Origin: Puniceicoccales bacterium
Lineage (GTDB): Bacteria > Verrucomicrobiota > Verrucomicrobiia > Opitutales > LL51
Direction of reading: 5' to 3'
Assembly: GCA_031270475.1 (NCBI GenBank)
Contig: JAISXO010000018.1
Coordinates: 105 to 64,104 of the forward strand
DNA length: 64,000 nucleotides
The position numbers and the translations under genes were made by a program. The first letter of the stretch is position 1; each line of letters opens with the position of its first letter. The notes under the pieces were generated by a model, which was not told where the DNA came from, did not search any database, and saw only the letters and a program-made list of their open reading frames with translations. Below are positions 17,847-60,953 of the stretch, one piece after another.

Positions 17847-18926
17847 TCAGTTGAAAACCGCATTTTCTCGGGCTCGCTCGTCTTTGATATCCTTGACCCA
17901 ACGCAAAACTTCTGCAACCGGTGCCATTAAATCCCTCGGAATGTATTCCATGACGCCCGCCGTATCCAATAGCGCGTGTGCTAAAGGTACATTGCGCATA
18001 ATCGGTATCCCTTCCTTTTCCGCAACAGCTATCATTTGTTCCGCAATGATGCCAACTCCTTTCGCAATCACAATCGGTAGGGGAAAGACGGGGCGCTCAA
18101 AATCGTAGAGTAATGCAATTGCGACATGCTCCGGATTCGTGACTAAAGCCGAAGCCTGTTTTGTCTTTTGAGGGGGATCCTCTTCCATCATTTCTTTGTG
18201 AATTTGTTTGCGTTTACTCTTAACCTGCCCATCGCCCTCGGATTCCTTATACTCCCTTTTGACTTCATCTTTACTCATCTTAAGCCCCTCTTTCCACTTG
18301 TATTTCTGATAGGCATAGTCGAGAGCCGCCATTGCAATGTATGCAAAAATGACCATCTTTGCGAAATTAGTCATAATAGGGCCAAGAATACTCAATACAC
18401 CGGATAACTTGCAAAACGGTAATAAAATTAAATCGTCAAATACATCTTTTACAACACCGACCAACAGGAAGCCCAAAAAAATGATTTTTACCGTTGACTT
18501 CAGCAGTTCGACGAGACTTTTCATGGAAAACATCTGCTGCGCCTTTGACATGGGATTAATTTTACTGAGATCGGGCTGTATCGTTTTCGATGTAAATAGG
18601 ATCCCAACCTGTGCAAAATTTCCAATGAGTCCCATGAGTGCTACCACGAAAATCGCTGGGAAAACAATGCCTCCCGTCTTCATCAAAACACTCCAAAGCG
18701 CCTGACCAGTATACCCCCCCAGATCATTACATCGCCCAATAAATTGGGTAGGGATCAAAATCATCTCTGAAATATTCTCTAAATGTTGATTCCAGCCCAA
18801 TCCAACATAACAAAATGCACCGATTAAAGTAAGCGTCGAATTGACGTCCTGACTCTTCGCAATATTTCCTTTATTGCGCGCGTCACGTATACGTTTCGGT
18901 GTTGGATCTTCGGTTTTTTCGCTCAT
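17847..18926 (-). CDS. sctU: Type III secretion export-apparatus switch protein (SctU/FlhB family)
   Basis: 359 aa. Motifs present: N-terminal EKTEDPTPKRIRDARNKGNIAKSQD, four TM segments, MSKDEVKREYKESEGDGQVKSKRKQ, an autocleavage-site variant NPEH, and a C-terminal GIPIMRNVPLAHAL. Confidence 0.9.
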   Translation of the reverse strand: MSEKTEDPTPKRIRDARNKGNIAKSQDVNSTLTLIGAFCYVGLGWNQHLENISEMILIPTQFIGRCNDLGGYTGQALWSVLMKTGGIVFPAIFVVALMGLIGNFAQVGILFTSKTIQPDLSKINPMSKAQQMFSMKSLVELLKSTVKIIFLGFLLVGVVKDVFDDLILLPFCKLSGVLSILGPIMTNFAKMVIFAYIAMAALDYAYQKYKWKEGLKMSKDEVKREYKESEGDGQVKSKRKQIHKEMMEEDPPQKTKQASALVTNPEHVAIALLYDFERPVFPLPIVIAKGVGIIAEQMIAVAEKEGIPIMRNVPLAHALLDTAGVMEYIPRDLMAPVAEVLRWVKDIKDERARENAVFN

Positions 18927-50489: not shown

Positions 50490-51332
50490 ATGAGTAAAAA
50501 TTATTATATTAAAAATAGATTACTAAAAAATATCGCACTCGGAATCTTTTTTCCGGGCATTTTTGTGGGAAGTACCGATGCCAGTTTCAGCCAAGCTCAG
50601 AAGCATCGTACTGCCGCAAAACCGCCAGATATGGAACTATCACTCGAGGAACGATCACTCAACGAGGAGCTATTTCAGGCCCTAAAAGAGTCAGAGCCGG
50701 ATCTTGGCAAAATAGAACAATTGCTCGCCCAAGGTGCCAATCCTGACGCACGAAATCAATACAACGATACCCCATTGTTTCATGCAAAAAATGCAGAAAT
50801 AACTGCCCTACTACTCAATGCGGGAGCTAACGCTGACGCACGAAATGACTGCAACAATACCCCATTGTTTCATGCAGAGAATGCAGCAATAACTGCCCTA
50901 CTACTCAATGCGGGAGCCGACGTAGACGCACGAAATCAATACAACGATACCCCATTGTTTCATGCAAAGAATGCAGAAATAACTGACCTACTACTTAATG
51001 CGGGAGCTGACGTAAACGCACAAAGTAACTTGGGCGATACTCCATTACATGTTGCTTTATATCATTTTCAAAAAGACCCAAAACAGATAGAAAAATTATT
51101 GCAAAGAGGCGCAAAAATAGACGTAGCAAGCCGATCTGTAGACCATCCAAAAGGCAATACGCCATTGTTTATAGTACAATGGGCCGCCCAAAAAGGCCTT
51201 CGAAGGCTTCGCACCAGTCTCTTCCCTCATACTCCTTACAAACTGACCGATGACACTCGCATAGCATACGCTAAACTTCTACCGCTATTTTTTCTCCCTC
51301 CTAATCTCTGGCAGAACTTGAATAGCAATTAA
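50490..51332 (+). CDS. Ankyrin-repeat protein with N-terminal signal-like segment
   Basis: 280 aa. IALGIFFPGIFVGSTDASFS leader, followed by repeated DARNQYNDTPLFHAKNAEITALLLNAGA units. Confidence 0.8.
   Translation: MSKNYYIKNRLLKNIALGIFFPGIFVGSTDASFSQAQKHRTAAKPPDMELSLEERSLNEELFQALKESEPDLGKIEQLLAQGANPDARNQYNDTPLFHAKNAEITALLLNAGANADARNDCNNTPLFHAENAAITALLLNAGADVDARNQYNDTPLFHAKNAEITDLLLNAGADVNAQSNLGDTPLHVALYHFQKDPKQIEKLLQRGAKIDVASRSVDHPKGNTPLFIVQWAAQKGLRRLRTSLFPHTPYKLTDDTRIAYAKLLPLFFLPPNLWQNLNSN
50745..51014 (+). repeat. Intragenic 90-bp (30-codon) tandem repeats, 3 units
   Basis: GACGCACGAAAT recurs at 50745, 50835 and 50925. Units 1 and 3 are nearly identical at the DNA level. Confidence 0.9.
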
Positions 51333-52677: not shown

Positions 52678-53856
52678 CTATATTTTATCAAATTCATTGA
52701 TCGTTGTAATACCGTCGCGAACATTTTCAGCAGCGACTTTTTTCAACGATACGAGACCATTTTTAACGGCAAGTGCGTGCAATGCATCCAACGGTAAACG
52801 TTTGCGAATGCTATCGCGAATATTAAGTGCCAACGGCAACCATTCGTAAATGCCAAAACGCCCCTTATATCCCTTCCCATCACACTGGGCACAACCACGA
52901 CCATGATAGACTTTTGTAATGCCATAAGGTTCAAGTTTCTCTATGTCCTCATTCGTCATGGGCATTTCTCCTTTACAATTTGAACAAATACGCCGTAAAA
53001 GACGCTGCGCTATAATTCCCTTTACCGTATCCGCAATCAGGTAGGGATCAATTTCCATGTCGACAAGCCGCGTCACTGCACTAGGCGCATCGTTGGTGTG
53101 TAGCGTTCCCAACACGAGATGTCCCGTCAATGCCGCTTGAATTGCAATTTTTGCCGTAATTGTATCGCGCAACTCACCGACGAGAATTTTATCGGGATCG
53201 TGACGTAAAAAAGCACGCAAAGCACTTTCAAATGTTAGGCCAACGTCGTCCCGAACATTAACTTGCACCATACCCTCGGTTTCGTATTCAACGGGATCCT
53301 CAACGGTCACGATTTTCGTTTCCTCATCATTAATTTCATTGAGCGCACTGTAGAGCGTCGTCGTTTTACCGCTCCCCGTTGGACCCGTCGTCAAAATAAT
53401 CCCCGAACCAGAGTTCAATGCTTGGCGAAATTCCACCAAAATTTCTGGCGAAATACCGATCTCATCCAAATTAAAATGCCACGAACCCTGATCTAAAACG
53501 CGTAATACAATGCTTTCACCGTACTGCGTGGGCAAAGTGGAAACACGGAAATCGACGGAACGTCCCAAACAAGTACGTTCGATGTGACCATCTTGTGGAA
53601 GGCGTTTTTCGGCGAGGTCGAGGGCAGCAAGTGTTTTGACGCGGGAGATAATTGCATCGCCAAGGCTACGTTCTGGAGCTGGCAATTCCACGAGTACACC
53701 ATCGATGCGTAAGCGAATGAGAACACTATTGGCAAACGTTTCGAAGTGAACATCAGACGCTCCTTTTTTGACGGCATATTCGAGCACATGGTCTACAAAA
53801 CGTATGATAGGAAACTCCGTATCTTCCGGCATAATCTTTCGCATTGAATCTAACAA
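52678..53856 (-). CDS. GspE/PilB-family secretion ATPase (short form, no N1 domain)
   Basis: 392 aa. Walker A is TTGPTGSGKTTT. Also has VEDPVEYE, ILVGELRD, LVLGTLHTNDAP and the tetra-Cys motif CSNCKG...CAQCDGKGYKGR. Confidence 0.85.
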   Translation of the reverse strand: MLDSMRKIMPEDTEFPIIRFVDHVLEYAVKKGASDVHFETFANSVLIRLRIDGVLVELPAPERSLGDAIISRVKTLAALDLAEKRLPQDGHIERTCLGRSVDFRVSTLPTQYGESIVLRVLDQGSWHFNLDEIGISPEILVEFRQALNSGSGIILTTGPTGSGKTTTLYSALNEINDEETKIVTVEDPVEYETEGMVQVNVRDDVGLTFESALRAFLRHDPDKILVGELRDTITAKIAIQAALTGHLVLGTLHTNDAPSAVTRLVDMEIDPYLIADTVKGIIAQRLLRRICSNCKGEMPMTNEDIEKLEPYGITKVYHGRGCAQCDGKGYKGRFGIYEWLPLALNIRDSIRKRLPLDALHALAVKNGLVSLKKVAAENVRDGITTINEFDKI

Positions 53857-54008: not shown

Positions 54009-56033
54009 TCAATTCCATTCAGTACTTGATTCTTGCGGATCTCCTTCAGTACTGGAATTTTTTATATCTTCGCGAATGAGACTTGTTTTCAGCATTATGT
54101 CTTCCAGTCTAACCTCATTATCATTAGGTTTTATGCTTTTGATGATATCTTCCGCTAAAAGTTTACTATCTAATATATTATTCTGTAATATCTTTACTTG
54201 TTTTTCCAATTCTTCCGTTTCTTTGTGCAGTTGCTCATAAGCTATTTGCTTCTCGGCGACGTCTTCGCTACTGTTTATTTTTGCTTCTGCAAGAGCCACT
54301 CTGGCTTCCGCCTTTTGTTTTTGCAATTCATGCAATTGGAGACGCTTTTCCTTTAATTCCGCCACTCCACTTCTCACCACTTCTTGGAGTTTAGGCAAAA
54401 CTCTTTCAAATTTGTTGCCACTGATCTCTTGTCCTTTTTTTAGTAGCTCCGGCGATACTTCCGTCACAAATTTACGAGCTGCAGAACGATTTTCTACCAT
54501 TCGATCGAATATATCTGAGGTCAATCTTACCTTTCCTGCTTCTTCCGGAAGAACAATACTATTAATGGCATCATCACTATATTCCCCTCCATGATCTCTC
54601 CGTTGTACGTCTGGAAGTTTAGTCAATTCCGCTTTCGCTTTAGTTAATTCCTCTTCAAGTTCTTTCTGTTTCTCCTTTTTAGCTACCTCCGCTGCTTTGG
54701 TCTCCGCTGTTATCGCTTTCATTTCGGGACTTGCGTCATCTTCCTCACTCCATCCACTTTGCATTTTTAATGCGTCATCTAATTCATCGCTTGCCCCCTC
54801 TTTTGGAACAAATAGTAACGGTCCTTCTCTGGCTGCTTCTGGAGTTGTATTTTCCGTTTGCGAGGTTGGTTTTTGGTCAACTTTCTTCAATTTAATTACA
54901 TGGATCGCATCGACAGTTACACCTTCACCTCCTGTTGGTGCCTCTCTACGTGGTGGTGACGGCGATTTCGGTATACTGGCCGCAGTGTCGTCAGACGTCG
55001 GCATTTTGGAAATCTTTCCCGGAGGAGGAGGCGGTGGTGGCGGTGGCGGTGGCGGTGCACCTGCTTTTACTTCTTCGGCTAGATCAGGCTGCGCAACTGG
55101 CTTCCCTAACCCCACAGATCCCGCTACAGTATCAGACGTCGATAATTTAGGCGGGGTTCCTGGCAGTGAAACTGGATTTGATGCCGTTGCTTCCGATTGT
55201 GGTTTTTCAAAGAATTTGCCCAAAAATGCAAATTCATTTTCTTGATGGTTATTTTTAATGATGTCTATCGCTGATCTATCGCTGCCAACTGACGTACTTA
55301 AAATCGCCTTTAATGCTTCCTCATCATCTTTAAAAGCATCGGCTACGCTTTTCAAAATATCAGCATTTCCCCTGGTAGCAGCTAAAGCAATCGGTGTCAA
55401 CCCTACACTCCCACGATGTAATAAGGCGTCCCTTAAAGCTTCTTTATCATCTTTAAGATTTTTTACAATAGTCTCAAAAATAGCAATGTTTTCATGGGTA
55501 GCAGCACAGACCAGCGGTGTATCGCCTGTGCTATCTTCTCCAGTTAGAACTGTTTTCAATGTTTCTTTATTACCTTGACAGCCATCAACCGCAGCATTGA
55601 AAATAGCCGTTTGGTCATTGGATGCAGACCATGTCAATAGTGTCTGACCGCCACCGAGACCTCCTATATGTTGCCCTAGAATTTCTGCTACGCCTTCCGG
55701 ATGGACATTCTTTAAGGTATTCCTTGTCATCTCGGGAGTTACGTTCCAATTCTGAACCGCTTTGGCTAACTGTTGGCTTTTCGCCTGAACCATTTCAGGA
55801 GACGCATTGCGTTCGCCACTTCCCCGGACCTGAGATCCTTCTCCCATCTGTCCTTTAATTTTTACGTGTTTCGTCCTCAAAGTATTACTAGACCCTCCGA
55901 ACAAAAACAGCCCAACTGCGCACATCCCTTGTTTAAAACCCAAACTACCAACTTCATCTTTACCTTGACGAGCTATGTCGCGACATAGATCCCATCGGCT
56001 TAAGTTAGTACAATCATTTTGTATTCCACTCAT
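54009..56033 (-). CDS. Candidate secreted effector: ankyrin-like repeats, 12-Pro tract, WH2-like motif, acidic Trp patch, coiled coil
   Basis: 674 aa with no signal peptide. ANK-like units cover residues ~130-260 (GDTPLVCAATHENIAIFETIV, GLTPIALAATRGNADILKSV). Other elements are P327-P338, VDAIHVIKLKKVDQ (375-387) and SDELDDALKMQSGWSEEDD (415-433). The C-terminal ~230 aa is Glu/Lys-rich and heptad-like. Confidence 0.6.
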   Translation of the reverse strand: MSGIQNDCTNLSRWDLCRDIARQGKDEVGSLGFKQGMCAVGLFLFGGSSNTLRTKHVKIKGQMGEGSQVRGSGERNASPEMVQAKSQQLAKAVQNWNVTPEMTRNTLKNVHPEGVAEILGQHIGGLGGGQTLLTWSASNDQTAIFNAAVDGCQGNKETLKTVLTGEDSTGDTPLVCAATHENIAIFETIVKNLKDDKEALRDALLHRGSVGLTPIALAATRGNADILKSVADAFKDDEEALKAILSTSVGSDRSAIDIIKNNHQENEFAFLGKFFEKPQSEATASNPVSLPGTPPKLSTSDTVAGSVGLGKPVAQPDLAEEVKAGAPPPPPPPPPPPPGKISKMPTSDDTAASIPKSPSPPRREAPTGGEGVTVDAIHVIKLKKVDQKPTSQTENTTPEAAREGPLLFVPKEGASDELDDALKMQSGWSEEDDASPEMKAITAETKAAEVAKKEKQKELEEELTKAKAELTKLPDVQRRDHGGEYSDDAINSIVLPEEAGKVRLTSDIFDRMVENRSAARKFVTEVSPELLKKGQEISGNKFERVLPKLQEVVRSGVAELKEKRLQLHELQKQKAEARVALAEAKINSSEDVAEKQIAYEQLHKETEELEKQVKILQNNILDSKLLAEDIIKSIKPNDNEVRLEDIMLKTSLIREDIKNSSTEGDPQESSTEWN
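55020..55055 (-). repeat. Twelve consecutive proline codons (CCN)12
   Basis: The plus strand reads GGAGGAGGAGGCGGTGGTGGCGGTGGCGGTGGCGG, in frame with the gene at 54009..56033. Confidence 0.95.
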
Positions 56034-56476: not shown

Positions 56477-56553
56477 CTAAGGCAGATAGTTTATGGAGAA
56501 ACATAAAAAAGTCAAGGGAAATAAAATTTTATTTATCCAGTGATTGAATCGCT

Positions 56554-57345
56554 TTGTTTTTTTATTGTGCTGTGTTCGTTTTATTTTATTTATTTTGTTT
56601 TGTGGGGTTCCTCCTTCGAAAGTTCCACTTTGCAGATTACCAAGCCTCGGCACTACGAACGGACATATTTTCTGCAAAATATCCATGGCATCAGGATTTC
56701 AATAGTCTTGCCGAAAATGAAAATGATGCATTTTTGAACGCTCCTCACGAAAACGATTCGAATTCTATCTCAGGAAATATACCTCCGGAAGATCCTCTCA
56801 TCACGGAGATTAAAAATGGTTCTCAGGTAGCGCTGGCACAATTTATTGATAGCCACAAGCAACGTATTTTTTCAGTTGTTTACAATATTGTTCACAATCC
56901 CGACGATGCTTCGGATATCACGCAGGACGTCTTCATCAAAGCCTACCATGCAATCCATACTTTTAGGTCAAATTCTGCGATCTTTACCTGGCTTTATCGC
57001 ATCGCCGTTAATTTATCGCTCTCTTTCCTGCGCAAACACAAAAATCATAGTTTCGTCAGCATTGATCAATTGGATGAATCCGGTATTTCGCTGGAGCAAC
57101 TGCGCTTCATCCCTACCATTGAAGGTGGCGATCAAACAACTAAATTGAAAGAACTACAAAAAAAATTGAACGAAGCACTACAAATGTTGTCTAATAAACA
57201 TAGGATTGTGTTTGTTTTGTTTGAAATTGAAGGCCTTCCCCAGGAACAGATCGCTCAGATTGTAGGGTGTTCCGTTGGGACGGTGCGTTCTCGTCTGCAT
57301 TATGCAAAACAGCAGTTACAAATATATTTAAAGGAGTTTTTATAG
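56554..57345 (+). CDS. ECF-type RNA polymerase sigma-70 factor
   Basis: Region 2 is IFSVVYNIVHNPDDASDITQDVFIKAYHAIHTFRSNSAIFTWLYRIAVNLS. Region 4 is LSNKHRIVFVLFEIEGLPQEQIAQIVGCSVGTVRSRLHYAKQQL. The true start is probably downstream of 56554 (in-frame GTGs at 56572 and near 56605, no in-frame ATG), so the 5' end is uncertain. Confidence 0.8.
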   Translation: MFFYCAVFVLFYLFCFVGFLLRKFHFADYQASALRTDIFSAKYPWHQDFNSLAENENDAFLNAPHENDSNSISGNIPPEDPLITEIKNGSQVALAQFIDSHKQRIFSVVYNIVHNPDDASDITQDVFIKAYHAIHTFRSNSAIFTWLYRIAVNLSLSFLRKHKNHSFVSIDQLDESGISLEQLRFIPTIEGGDQTTKLKELQKKLNEALQMLSNKHRIVFVLFEIEGLPQEQIAQIVGCSVGTVRSRLHYAKQQLQIYLKEFL

Positions 57346-57346
57346 G

Positions 57347-57787
57347 ATGTTATCCGAAGACAAAAACAAAAAGTTATCGCAATTGTTTCAAGTGAAGAAA
57401 AGCTTGGAGCGACCCAATCAAGCATTTTGGGAGCGTTTTGATGGACAACTGCGACAAAAATTTTTAGAACAGGGAGTGAAAGTTTCGCTATGGACGAAAT
57501 GCCGCACCATGATGCAAAAATGGGATAGGTGGATTCGGTCTTTTGCCTATACAACGGCCACGTGCTGTCTCTTAGTTTTTGGCGTCATGCAATTTAGTTC
57601 ATCAAAAATAGAAGTCCGGCAGATACCTCGCGTTTCATCACCCATTGCCGATATTATCCCTTTTCCAAAAACTTGGACAGATGTTACCTTAGCCTTTGAT
57701 AGTTCTACGCAGCAGCATATCCAATATATCTGCGACAATATACACATATCGCAATTGAATTCTACAATGAAAGAACTAGTTTTCTAG
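57347..57787 (+). CDS. Putative single-pass anti-sigma factor
   Basis: Starts 1 nt after the sigma-factor stop. 146 aa with one TM (FAYTTATCCLLVFGVMQF) after a ~65-aa cytoplasmic part. Called from position and topology only. Confidence 0.4.
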   Translation: MLSEDKNKKLSQLFQVKKSLERPNQAFWERFDGQLRQKFLEQGVKVSLWTKCRTMMQKWDRWIRSFAYTTATCCLLVFGVMQFSSSKIEVRQIPRVSSPIADIIPFPKTWTDVTLAFDSSTQQHIQYICDNIHISQLNSTMKELVF

Positions 57788-57790
57788 ACT

Positions 57791-58837
57791 ATGCGAAGTA
57801 TTGGGCTTTTGGTTAGTTGCGTTTGGTTTGGTTTTTCAGTTCGTGCTATGGATATCTCCAAGTTGAATGGTACCGTCTCAACGGATGTCAGTGGTGCTTT
57901 GTCGAGCCAGAAAGCGGATCGTCCGACATCGGTACTTTGTGCACTTTCTGCGGATATTCAACATCTATGGAACCAGCAAAAAGACGCCGTTGTAAAGGTT
58001 ATGGGAACTCAAAAGGGGAATTCGGAAAACTTATTATTTGGGACAGGATTCTTTGCGGATAAGGAGGGCAACATTTTGACGACTGCGACGATTGTAACAG
58101 AAGCTGAAAACCTATGGGTCGAGTATCAAGGGCTATCCTATGCGGCGACCGTCGTTGGAAAGGATTCCGTAACGAATATAGCTGTCATTAATCTTTTGAA
58201 GAAGCCGGAACATTTTACGCCGCTTTCACTATCTAAAAACCCATGTTTTACTGTAATTTCCGAAGGTAATATTGTGATTGCAATTGGCTGCGTACGAGGC
58301 ATGGAGCCGGCACCATTGCTAGGTCTTATCGCGGGAAAAAATATTGTTTTTGGCAACCGTGTTTTTATGACGACCTATCTTCGCGCAGATATCAGCATGT
58401 GCGGAGGCGAAAGCGGCGCTCCGGTATTTGACGGTGAGGGCAATTTGAGTGGTATTTTGATTGCATCGGTCTCCGAATTGCATTCGAGTTTCATTATTCC
58501 GAAGCATGCTTTGGCGCGCGTTTTTAACGACATTGTTCAGCACAAAAGTGTCGTCTATTGTTCGGCGGGATTCAGTGCACGTGGGCAACTATCGGAAGCG
58601 GGCGGCAAAGAAGTGATTATTTCTGCAATCGACGCGCAAAAAATTAAGTACAGCGCGGGAGAACCCTTGCAATTAGGTGATATTATTGTAAAAATCGACA
58701 CACAAAACATTATCAACGAAAGCGACATTGCCGATATTTTATTCTTTAAAAGGCCCAATGATACTCTCACTATCCATGTTATTCGCAATGGGAAAGCATT
58801 GCAAGTGGCCATTTTTCTCAGTGAAAAAGTTCTTTAG
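57791..58837 (+). CDS. HtrA/DegS-like trypsin-fold protein with PDZ domain; catalytic His and Asp apparently substituted
   Basis: Has a signal/anchor at the N-terminus. GTGFFADKEGNILTTATIV aligns to GSGVI..GYIITNKHVI (His to Thr). DSVTNIAVINL aligns to DSLTDLAVLKI (Asp to Asn). GGESGAPVF retains the Ser (GNSGGAL). The C-terminal PDZ-like region contains LQLGDIIVKIDTQNI. Confidence 0.7.
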   Translation: MRSIGLLVSCVWFGFSVRAMDISKLNGTVSTDVSGALSSQKADRPTSVLCALSADIQHLWNQQKDAVVKVMGTQKGNSENLLFGTGFFADKEGNILTTATIVTEAENLWVEYQGLSYAATVVGKDSVTNIAVINLLKKPEHFTPLSLSKNPCFTVISEGNIVIAIGCVRGMEPAPLLGLIAGKNIVFGNRVFMTTYLRADISMCGGESGAPVFDGEGNLSGILIASVSELHSSFIIPKHALARVFNDIVQHKSVVYCSAGFSARGQLSEAGGKEVIISAIDAQKIKYSAGEPLQLGDIIVKIDTQNIINESDIADILFFKRPNDTLTIHVIRNGKALQVAIFLSEKVL

Positions 58838-59088: not shown

Positions 59089-59561
59089 GTAAAAGTAATC
59101 GGAGTAGTATGGGACCCATGTTCCATTCTTGCGAAGGTTAAGAATGGAAGTGGTGTATTTTTAGGGAAGGAATATGTTCTTTGAAGGGGTTTACATATAT
59201 TCCTACTTTAATTGGAAGGTCCTTTTCCCTTACCTAAATCGGCTCTCATTGCTTCACTCCAATACTGTTCTTCTATATTAAGTGATCTCTCCCATTTTTC
59301 CGCTATATCTTGGCCCCAGCACAATATTGCCTGGCAACTTTTTTGCACGATATATATACCACATAGACCTATCAAGATAGTCCATACTCTAACTGTTTTT
59401 ATTGACTTTTCCATAATTTTGAAATTTCTACTAAGCTCATTTAGAAAAAACATTTGTCAAGCTTTTTTTGATATTTTTTCAAGTTTTTTCATAATTCAAT
59501 TTAACCGGCATGAGAAAACCTCTTACCTTATCGAATATAATGACAAAAATAAAGTACTGGG

Positions 59562-59633
<72 letters not shown>

Positions 59634-59864
59634 CTGCCCCCATGCCAAGAAATTTTCCTCAATTTTCAAGTGTTTATTCAATTTTCATCCACTTTCCCAA
59701 TCATCTTACTTTCGCCAAATCATCATAAAAAAACGGCAATAAGGCCTGCTGTGAAATTTTCGCTACGAACAGGGCCTATTACCATCGAATTTCTTTCCAC
59801 CACAACGAACAATCGGAAATAAATTATCAATTTTCCGCTAAACTATTGTGATTTACTCGCCAAA

Positions 59865-60953
59865 TTAGAAAATATCGGCAAATAACGTTTCCTCATTTAT
59901 CATTTCATCGGACCAGAGTGATCCATCCGTGGCCATCCGCGATAGATAACTTATAAAAATTACAAATATAAAGTTTTCCTCTCGTTTTCCATGTAGATTC
60001 GGCCATAATCGCAATACTTGTCTCAACTCATCTGGAGAAAGAATTTCCCGAACGCGGCCAAATATCTGATGGCATTCATCGATCATCTTCTTCTCGCCAT
60101 CACCGGCCTCGTGGTTTCTTCCAGAAATGAATGCTCCAATTGTTGCAATAAAACCTGATAGCTTTTTGTCTATAAGTTTTGCTACGTCTTTCGCAACAGC
60201 TGGAACTACCAGCCCCGGAGCGAAGCCTTCAGCTTGTCCTGTGGACATTTGAGCAATTATCTGCGATCGAAATTGAGATATATTCTCATTGGGCAATTGG
60301 GCAACTATTCGTTCAACTTTTGTTCGCAGCGCATCATTTATTCCGGATGCCTCATACCGTTGGTATGAATCCTCGGAATCTTCGGAATCCTCGGAATCCT
60401 CAACCTCTCGTCGTGAACTGCCAACCCTACGCCGTTGGTATAGGGCATTGGGATCCTCAATCTCTCGCTGTAAATCCGTAATTTGTTGCCGCAAAGCCTG
60501 ATTTTCTTTTTTAAGATCATCATTCTGTAAGCGGAAGTTCATGGCCGCATCCTGACCTTCTCCCCATTTGAGTGCCGTTTGGGCCTCTTGCTCTTTAAGT
60601 CGCCTCTGTAATCGTTGATTTTCATTTTCCAGCTCTGAGATTCGCTTTTGCAATGCCGCACAACTATCTCTGTATTTTCCAAATACGGGCTCCAAACTTT
60701 TCTTTAAAGCATCATAGAAAGCGAATGGCTTCGCTATTACTTTACGCCCATCGATTACTTTATCTTCTGTGTCGAGAATATCTCGGATGTTTTTTCGGAT
60801 AACATCTAAAACTTCTCTCTCCAGGAAAGAATCCTCCAAGCGAACACAACTGGATTGGGCATTTTCCTGACTAGATCCCCAAACAGAGCTATTCACATAT
60901 AAAAAACCTGTACATATAAGCACACATCTCAACGTATCGTTATTTTTTTTCAT
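59865..60953 (-). CDS. Hypothetical secreted coiled-coil protein
   Basis: 362 aa. Signal-like MKKNNDTLRCVLICTGFLYVNSSVWG, long heptad-like Gln/Glu/Arg-rich segments, and EDSEDSEDSEDS from a 9-bp repeat near 60370-60400. Confidence 0.5.
   Translation of the reverse strand: MKKNNDTLRCVLICTGFLYVNSSVWGSSQENAQSSCVRLEDSFLEREVLDVIRKNIRDILDTEDKVIDGRKVIAKPFAFYDALKKSLEPVFGKYRDSCAALQKRISELENENQRLQRRLKEQEAQTALKWGEGQDAAMNFRLQNDDLKKENQALRQQITDLQREIEDPNALYQRRRVGSSRREVEDSEDSEDSEDSYQRYEASGINDALRTKVERIVAQLPNENISQFRSQIIAQMSTGQAEGFAPGLVVPAVAKDVAKLIDKKLSGFIATIGAFISGRNHEAGDGEKKMIDECHQIFGRVREILSPDELRQVLRLWPNLHGKREENFIFVIFISYLSRMATDGSLWSDEMINEETLFADIF

Follow-up and report, generated by a model that had tools for sequence, protein, structure and literature searches.

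Three adjacent plus-strand genes at positions 56554-58837 of a 64,000-nucleotide stretch of the Puniceicoccales bacterium contig JAISXO010000018.1 (assembly GCA_031270475.1; the whole stretch is called the window below) encode a sigma factor of the extracytoplasmic function (ECF) type, a presumed single-pass anti-sigma factor, and an HtrA/DegS-like protein with a PDZ domain that lacks the catalytic His and Asp. DegS-type site-1 cleavage is the textbook relay of envelope damage to an ECF sigma factor. In our best reading, which we favour to a modest degree, the three genes together make up a single conserved operon that serves cell-envelope signalling in Verrucomicrobiota. The module is best read as a variant of the sigmaE/RseA/DegS logic that is widespread in this phylum and is annotated generically as a serine protease. 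On balance, we infer that the dead, DegS-derived periplasmic protein binds rather than cuts, its PDZ domain gripping the tail of the anti-sigma factor until a signal frees it.

The third gene (57791-58837, plus strand) encodes the HtrA/DegS-like pseudoprotease of 348 residues, which was assigned by Pfam matches, an AlphaFold2 model and Foldseek. Matches to Trypsin_2 (PF13365, 54.5 bits, cut-off 27.6) and PDZ_2 (PF13180, 34.9 bits, cut-off 27) were both above threshold. The protein consists of a signal-peptide-like segment (MRSIGLLVSCVWFGFSVRA, 57791-57847, plus strand), a hydrophobic N-terminus conserved in homologues, followed by a disordered linker, a chymotrypsin-fold domain and one PDZ domain (58556-58825, plus strand). 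Within the PDZ domain the carboxylate-binding loop A259-G260-F261 is intact, and the helix DIADILFFK is specific to the family. The AlphaFold2 model, computed on the alignment of the immediate clade, has a mean predicted local distance difference test score (pLDDT) of 80, with values above 90 in the protease and PDZ cores and low values in residues 1-43, which comprise the signal peptide and linker. Its Foldseek neighbours are Deg1, DegS, DegQ, DegP, Mycobacterium tuberculosis HtrA, MucD and AlgW, at E values of about 1e-19 to 1e-21, and they include DegS bound to C-terminal YQF/YRF peptides.

The catalytic positions were aligned in three ways: by phmmer to solved DegP-like and other HtrAs, by MAFFT with canonical HtrAs and E. 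coli DegS, and by hmmalign to the family hidden Markov model. The three methods were concordant. In the His column, ILTTATIV stands against ITNKHV, which places Thr100 (codon 58088-58090) at the His position; in the Asp column, VTNIAV stands against LTDLAV, which places Asn129 (58175-58177) at the Asp position; and in the Ser column, GGESGAP stands against GNSGGA, so that Ser208 (58412-58414) is retained at the nucleophile position (all on the plus strand). A sequence-only reading of this stretch had proposed the same three assignments by eye and had suggested a profile alignment, which has now been run and agrees with it. Thr97 was also considered as the His equivalent and was rejected, as hmmalign against DegS puts it at the invariant Thr of the 'TN.H' motif. 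No invariant His or Lys was found in the protease domain of the clade, and there is therefore no obvious substitute for the general base. Thus the protein has the chymotrypsin fold and the C-terminal PDZ domain of S1C and is without the His-Asp-Ser triad; judged by these alignments, it is a structural (non-peptidase) homologue of S1C and not an enzyme member. Its scores were also far from those of the named HtrA types, at 76.7 bits against a cut-off of 422.95 for the DegS equivalog TIGR02038, 65.6 against 408 for NF008147, and 88.5 against 416.2 for Do/DegP/DegQ (TIGR02037), which requires two PDZ domains where this protein has one. Public annotation calls it an S1C serine protease. The public gene call P0001 (329 residues) starts at Met20, dropping the signal-peptide-like segment that homologues keep, and looks N-terminally truncated.

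The sequence-only reading had raised the question of whether the substitutions are fixed in orthologues, and they are. Among the 27 members of the clade (38-100% identity), the His column contains T in 25, M in 1 and A in 1, the Asp column N in 26 and S in 1, and the Ser column S in 27/27; His and Asp are absent from every member. The wider family was found by a profile search of 1.84 billion cluster representatives, which gave 386 clusters at E <= 1e-30. Column counts were taken from the best 144 non-clade representatives, and a diverse subset (alignment A7) comprised 57 sequences. A complete His-Asp-Ser triad was present in only 4 of the 144, all at the bottom of the list. The Asp column contained N in 78, G in 42 and D in 6, and the His column was mostly S, T, A or N, with other residues as well. 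Since the triad is degenerate in nearly all of these sequences and most have lost the Ser as well, a function common to the family cannot need catalysis. For this large family a degenerate triad is ancestral and not a recent loss. The earlier implication that His and Asp had been lost locally therefore does not hold: the loss is an old, phylum-wide trait of the family.

Even the nucleophile position varies, with Ser in 22/144 representatives (4/57 in A7) and otherwise G, I, A or V. Inside each subfamily the residue at this position is constant, whichever residue it is (GESG, GEGG, GEAG, GQIG), which we read as a structural constraint on the loop rather than a sign of catalysis. The oxyanion loop around it is conserved in A7 (G206 in 55/57, G209 in 57/57, with P211 also conserved). 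So are positions of the PDZ domain, namely G260 (55/57, with flanking hydrophobic residues), D297 (57/57), F318 (55/57) and F319 (40/57), the last two being a family-specific pair in the PDZ groove helix. Organism names in the family are Puniceicoccales, Opitutales/Opitutae, Terrimicrobiaceae and 'Verrucomicrobiota bacterium', representing at least three verrucomicrobial lineages. Two proteins from a 12.5-kb contig, P0003 and P0123, carry the label of a 'Holosporaceae bacterium' metagenome-assembled genome (MAG), with 74% identity for the HtrA-like and 61% for the middle protein; this label is probably a binning error, because every other named relative is verrucomicrobial. A metagenome scan with highly degenerate patterns derived from the clade profile yielded, among the matches listed, a single match, an ordinary HtrA.

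The second gene (57347-57787, plus strand) encodes a protein of 146 residues, presumed from its position and topology to be the anti-sigma factor. It lies directly 3' of the ECF sigma gene, from which 1 nt separates it in most of the clade loci. The protein contains one hydrophobic segment (residues 63-81, IRSFAYTTATCCLLVFGVM, 57533-57589, plus strand; top 19-residue Kyte-Doolittle window 1.45), and since basic residues precede this segment, an N-in topology is suggested, as expected of a membrane anti-sigma factor. A counterpart is present in distant homologues. These middle proteins have in common a motif in the N-terminal part, which reads KLSQLFQLK..E.P in clade members and LLRLK[KR].EQP in more distant ones, as well as a single transmembrane segment, the motif [HR]Y[IV].D and Phe as the last residue. 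In the window the protein has a conserved, presumably cytoplasmic N-terminus with KLSQLFQ.KK..E.P...FW..F and a periplasmic part of about 60 residues containing HYICD, and it ends in ...KELVF.

The C-terminal tetrapeptide ELVF-COOH (57773-57784, plus strand) is proposed to be a PDZ ligand. The last residue is Phe in 23/23 distinct middle proteins, against a crudely estimated background of 8% among open reading frames (ORFs), and position -2 is Leu in 17/23 and Phe in 4/23. The tetrapeptides at the end are ELVF, ELAF, ELIF, PLAF, ALAF, EFSF, SFSF, PTRF, PRSF and AFRF. Apart from this tail, the periplasmic region is barely alignable (18-30% identity), and alignment A6 of the middle proteins has 9 invariant columns, the C-terminal Phe among them. 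The homologue search returned only 7 close relatives. No Pfam or NCBIfam family matched the middle protein, a Pfam scan of 17 members at E <= 10 gave no shared match, and a profile search against the PDB gave nothing meaningful. The public gene call P0121 (127 residues) starts inside the conserved N-terminal motif (57347-57403) and looks N-terminally truncated.

The first gene encodes an ECF (group 4) sigma factor of 247 residues when read from a conserved GTG (56602-57345, plus strand). It contains sigma2 and sigma4 domains only (Sigma70_r2, 60.9 bits; Sigma70_r4_2, 53.1 bits) and scored 106.7 bits against a cut-off of 42.9 for TIGR02937, as is characteristic of group 4. It scored 117.9 bits against the cut-off of 236.15 of the RpoE equivalog TIGR02939, and it passed none of the other equivalog models, such as SigW, either. 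Verrucomicrobia, HtrA and PDZ go unmentioned in the main text of the ECF classification (Casas-Pastor et al. 2021).

The order ECF sigma factor, protein of 132-155 residues, HtrA-like protein was kept in 16/16 loci having upstream DNA, and the ORFs of the module were intact in every locus. In the window the three ORFs (56554-57345, 57347-57787 and 57791-58837) are separated by 1 nt and then 3 nt. In the 14 clade loci the gap is 1 nt between sigma and middle gene (5 nt in L015) and 2-4 nt between middle and HtrA-like gene. The outlier P0028, in which the triad positions read G/G/G, belongs to the same three genes in a wholly different neighbourhood, and its sigma cluster includes a Terrimicrobiaceae entry. 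Among five distant members, the full triplet was found in L019, L021 and L022, while the middle gene of L023 is at a contig edge. The tight packing, the ECF sigma factor, the single-pass membrane protein in the anti-sigma position and the HtrA-like protein with a PDZ domain had all been recognized in the sequence-only reading, and the ORF coordinates, the Pfam and NCBIfam matches and the hydrophobicity profile confirm them.

The ratios of nonsynonymous to synonymous substitution rates (dN/dS), calculated by the Nei-Gojobori method from pairs including the unsaturated L004/L006, were 0.10-0.21 in the sigma gene, while the middle and HtrA-like genes gave 0.13-0.23 and 0.18-0.25, respectively. 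These values indicate that all three genes are under purifying selection. The HtrA-like protein has a database entry of 100% identity from a Puniceicoccales MAG. Its close homologues came from 8 species-representative genomes, all of them Puniceicoccales MAGs, and CP095464.1, a record of 878 kb and probably a reduced genome, carries the most distant member of the immediate clade. The low dN/dS of the HtrA-like gene, its confident HtrA-like AlphaFold2 model and the retention of the module on this 878-kb record argue that the gene is not decaying.

A hydrophobic x-Phe-COOH terminus is the classic ligand of HtrA-family PDZ domains, including those of DegS and DegP. Because the DegS-like protein lacks the triad and the anti-sigma tail is of the PDZ-ligand kind, we favour signalling by binding rather than by cleavage. 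It is quite probable that the third protein is a non-catalytic regulatory partner of the sigma/anti-sigma pair. That its PDZ domain contacts the C-terminal tail of the anti-sigma factor is, from the sequences, a serious possibility just short of even. In the mechanism we propose, the N-terminus of the anti-sigma factor would hold the sigma factor in the cytoplasm, and its roughly 60 periplasmic residues would end in Leu-x-Phe-COOH, like the C-terminus of an outer-membrane protein. The PDZ domain of the dead HtrA would grip this Phe tail and so guard or tether the periplasmic end. The tail would be freed by a signal that occupies or alters the PDZ domain or the cleft, such as outer-membrane proteins that have failed to assemble and expose their C-termini, and the freed anti-sigma factor would be open to other proteases, with release of the sigma factor. 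The specific form of guard and competition, in which unassembled outer-membrane proteins would compete through their C-termini, displacing the tail and so leaving it exposed to a protease of the RseP type or a tail-specific one, is tentative and stands at perhaps one chance in four or five. Similarly speculative, and slightly less likely, is the idea that the site-1 step has been turned from a cut into a ligand exchange, the freed hydrophobic C-terminus serving as the entry signal for the RseP-type site-2 or tail-specific protease.

The binding reading is supported by the triad loss and its fixation, the dN/dS values, the operon order, the Phe tails in 23/23 middle proteins, the PDZ loop and the DegS-peptide complexes among the structural neighbours. 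The sequence-only reading had already suggested that the PDZ-bearing protein might act non-proteolytically in this position. That part is supported by the substitutions fixed in the clade, the loss of Ser in homologues from the same kind of operon and the invariant C-terminal Phe, while the local loss of catalysis that went with it is not. Several observations weigh on the other side. The middle protein has no detectable homology to known anti-sigma domains (ZAS, RseA_N, RskA, FecR and similar). One family member, P0289, stands alone, with no sigma or anti-sigma gene. When the middle and HtrA-like proteins were co-folded as one chain from single sequence, the mean pLDDT was 32, too low to be informative on a contact. 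The strict retention of Ser208 and the oxyanion glycines in the clade gives slight scope for residual or unconventional chemistry. Finally, no RseP-type site-2 protease, no second HtrA and no other tie to regulated intramembrane proteolysis, in which the sequence-only reading had placed the protein as a possible sensor or competitor, was found in the 64-kb window, in which HtrA-profile matches and 20 large ORFs were scanned, and the downstream proteolytic steps are thus hypothetical.

The retained Ser208 raises the possibility that the protein is still a protease, Ser208 working with an unconventional base to perform DegS-like site-1 cleavage of the anti-sigma factor. The invariance of Ser208 and of the GG.SG oxyanion loop in 27/27 clade members would fit this. 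It nevertheless seems improbable, since His and Asp are missing from every clade member, the protease domain offers no invariant His or Lys, and orthologous modules have Gly, Ala or Ile at the nucleophile position; there the residue is constant within each subfamily (GEGG, GEAG, GQIG), which points to a structural and not a catalytic constraint. A decaying relic or an annotation artefact without function might be suspected on the grounds that pseudogenes accumulate in host-associated reduced genomes and that the public label is merely S1C serine protease. This explanation is effectively refuted by the conservation in clade and family, the AlphaFold2 model and the dN/dS: every locus has undamaged ORFs, the dN/dS is close to 0.2, the predicted fold is confident, and the family extends over at least three verrucomicrobial lineages.

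Two further explanations accept a protein without catalysis. It may be an adaptor that activates or recruits a separate active protease, such as a canonical HtrA encoded elsewhere, for site-1 cleavage, and possibly forms mixed trimers with it, HtrA proteins being obligate trimers. MamO offers a precedent, for this HtrA-like pseudoprotease is itself non-catalytic and yet promotes the proteolysis that depends on MamE (PMC4794232). An adaptor would be as compatible as a guard with the conserved cleft and PDZ domain. However, no second HtrA-like ORF is present in the window and none is adjacent in the loci examined, and the need for the C-terminal Phe of the anti-sigma factor is left unexplained unless the tail is a recruitment handle, so that we consider an adaptor unlikely. 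Alternatively, the protein might belong to the output of the system and not to its input, as a protease-free periplasmic chaperone or holdase that is the first regulon member, co-transcribed with the sigma factor and exerting no control over the anti-sigma factor. Models for this exist, as degP is controlled by sigmaE and htrA follows sigE-rseA in mycobacteria; moreover, protease-dead DegP keeps its chaperone activity and HtrA genes are typical members of envelope-stress regulons. Co-transcription and the conserved substrate-binding features are compatible with such a role. Yet the neighbouring anti-sigma factor has an invariant C-terminus that resembles a PDZ ligand, precisely these three genes are tightly coupled across the phylum despite differing neighbourhoods, and the PDZ domain is single, like that of the sensor DegS, where the chaperone-proteases DegP/DegQ have two. 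These points make the explanation less likely still than an adaptor.

As in the sigmaE/RseA/DegS system of E. coli and the AlgU/MucA/AlgW system of Pseudomonas, the module combines an ECF sigma factor, a presumed single-pass anti-sigma factor and a periplasmic DegS-like third player with a single PDZ domain. With the DegS system it also shares a C-terminal x-Phe as the apparent PDZ ligand, and DegS and AlgW are among the best structural matches. In contrast to the DegS and AlgW systems, the DegS-like protein here is without catalytic His or Asp, and the NCBIfam equivalog cut-offs for DegS and RpoE are missed by a wide margin. The middle protein is homologous to neither RseA nor MucA, and no RseA, RseB or RseC domains occur in the downstream genes. 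Unlike in the sigmaE system, the Phe tail is on the anti-sigma factor itself and not on outer-membrane proteins (porins). In E. coli degS is unlinked to rpoE, whereas here all three genes are in one operon. The same gene order, with ECF sigma factor, anti-sigma factor and HtrA-like PDZ protein, is found in the sigE-rseA-htrA(pepD) cluster of M. tuberculosis, and the HtrA structures of this organism are among the fold matches of the HtrA-like protein. The mycobacterial HtrAs are active with a full triad and the mycobacterial RseA is cytoplasmic and zinc-binding, and in both respects the module here differs. We know of no C-terminal Phe signature in the actinobacterial sigE-rseA-htrA cluster.

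A likeness to RseB/MucB may be seen in the proposed role, in which a periplasmic protein would bind the periplasmic part of the anti-sigma factor and control access to it; RseB is not HtrA-like and has an unrelated fold, and the likeness is one of functional analogy only. MamO is likewise a bacterial protein of trypsin-2/HtrA fold whose degenerate triad is kept by selection, and its non-catalytic roles include control of another proteolytic event; it acts in magnetosome biomineralisation, its surface di-His motif binds metal, and the oxyanion position is occupied by a residue other than Gly (PMC4794232). The protein described here shares with MamO the degenerate triad on an HtrA scaffold. It differs in its sigma/anti-sigma context in Verrucomicrobiota, outside a magnetosome setting, in having no di-His site and no invariant His in the protease domain, and in the conservation of G206 (position 193) in 55/57 sequences. 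In the open full-text literature, subscription journals being outside its coverage, no earlier description was found of an inactive HtrA tied to an anti-sigma factor, an ECF sigma factor or Verrucomicrobia.

What we describe is a phylum-level family that has kept the DegS scaffold and the PDZ domain beside a sigma/anti-sigma pair and has discarded catalysis, with a Phe tail on the anti-sigma factor. If the binding model is true, the family would be a natural pseudoenzyme that has swapped a proteolytic switch for a competitive-binding switch, and would provide a simple peptide-PDZ pair. If the ligand-exchange reading is true, a protease-free site-1 step would operate across Verrucomicrobiota, kept even in symbionts whose genomes are about 0.9 Mb in size. 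That the strongly reduced genomes of protist symbionts have held on to the module suggests that it is important for envelope homeostasis there. For annotation, the consequence is that, of the verrucomicrobial database records labelled 'S1C family serine protease' or 'serine protease Do', hundreds are probably not proteases.

With regard to the start of the sigma gene, the maximal ORF begins at TTG 56554, and the in-frame start candidates 5' of the sigma2 core are TTG 56554, GTG 56572, GTG 56602 and TTG 56734. None is ATG, which bears out the earlier statement that this ORF has no in-frame ATG and must start at GTG or TTG. Every clade locus has the motif V-[GAV]-[FL]-F-x-[RQ]-K opening on a GTG, and in L001 and L015 the gene callers begin the protein at this position. 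As the GTG and this N-terminal motif are conserved across the clade loci, GTG 56602 is the likely start. The N-terminal extension to the sigma core (56602-56790) consists of a conserved 8-residue VGFLLRKF followed by a linker, whose length varies from about 11 residues in L001 and L015 to about 55 in the window. In comparisons of the window with L004, L005 and L006 the extension is ungapped with a dN/dS of 0.16-0.25, and it is therefore translated. A frameshift was also considered, in which a T-run at 56731-56735 one base longer would bring the out-of-frame ATGs at 56718-56729 into the sigma frame; it was rejected because every clade locus keeps the GTG-initiated motif and the extension has no gaps and a dN/dS of about 0.2.

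Immediately 5' of the GTG, DNA alignment of the window with L004-L007, L017, L002 and L010 revealed a conserved non-coding block (56551-56601, plus strand). It reads CTTTTTT(A/G)TTGTnC, followed by an A/T-rich hexamer ending 7-8 nt 5' of the GTG. The block contains no Shine-Dalgarno sequence and no plus-strand match to the sigma-70 consensus. It is probably a promoter or a very short leader; the transcript may be leaderless or nearly so, or the block may be the sigma factor's own dedicated ECF promoter. Scans for intrinsic terminators and sigma-70 promoters around the operon gave matches no commoner than in shuffled sequence, and on the plus strand there was none 5' of the sigma gene.

The middle and HtrA-like genes are in one reading frame (stop, 3 nt, ATG) in most clade loci. 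Stop-codon read-through fusing the two was considered and rejected, since L002 and L017 have gaps of 2 or 4 nt and the frame is not conserved. For the same reason, translational coupling of the two genes is more likely than a read-through fusion.

The genes flanking the operon are in the opposite orientation, so that the three genes are a self-contained unit. They comprise a protein with ankyrin, poly-proline and coiled-coil features, a small ORF and a coiled-coil protein; a tRNA-Cys is also nearby. The first of these is a protein of 674 residues (54009-56033, minus strand) with ankyrin repeats, an unbroken run of 12 prolines and a long C-terminal coiled coil, and it looks like a candidate eukaryote-like effector. 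A further ankyrin-repeat protein is encoded at 50490-51332 (plus strand). The coiled-coil protein on the other side (59865-60953, minus strand; 362 residues) contains a hydrophobic segment in its N-terminal part, together with long coiled coils and a repeat of acidic (SED)n type, and its matches were limited to weak ones to eukaryotic coiled-coil families. The tRNA-Cys (GCA; 59558-59634, minus strand), between the operon and the coiled-coil gene, is the sole tRNA of the window. Protist endosymbionts with genomes of about 1 Mb are known among Verrucomicrobia (the 'Nucleococcus cluster'; PMC8204192), and the window may be placed by inference in such a lineage.

The window also contains a type III secretion export gene of the FlhB/YscU family (17847-18926, minus strand) and an ATPase gene of the type II secretion system/type IV pilus kind (52678-53856, minus strand). 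The latter ATPase is also found upstream of the module in L001 and L015, as conserved synteny, and a CesT-type chaperone is encoded near the module in L002 (11617-12117). The secretion genes and the chaperone fit a host-associated lifestyle. In modules of the Terrimicrobiaceae type, a gene for a cell-wall amidase (Amidase_3) overlaps the end of the dead-HtrA gene (L013, 5712-6818; L014, 4855-5961). This gene may extend the operon in that group, a hint of an envelope or peptidoglycan output.

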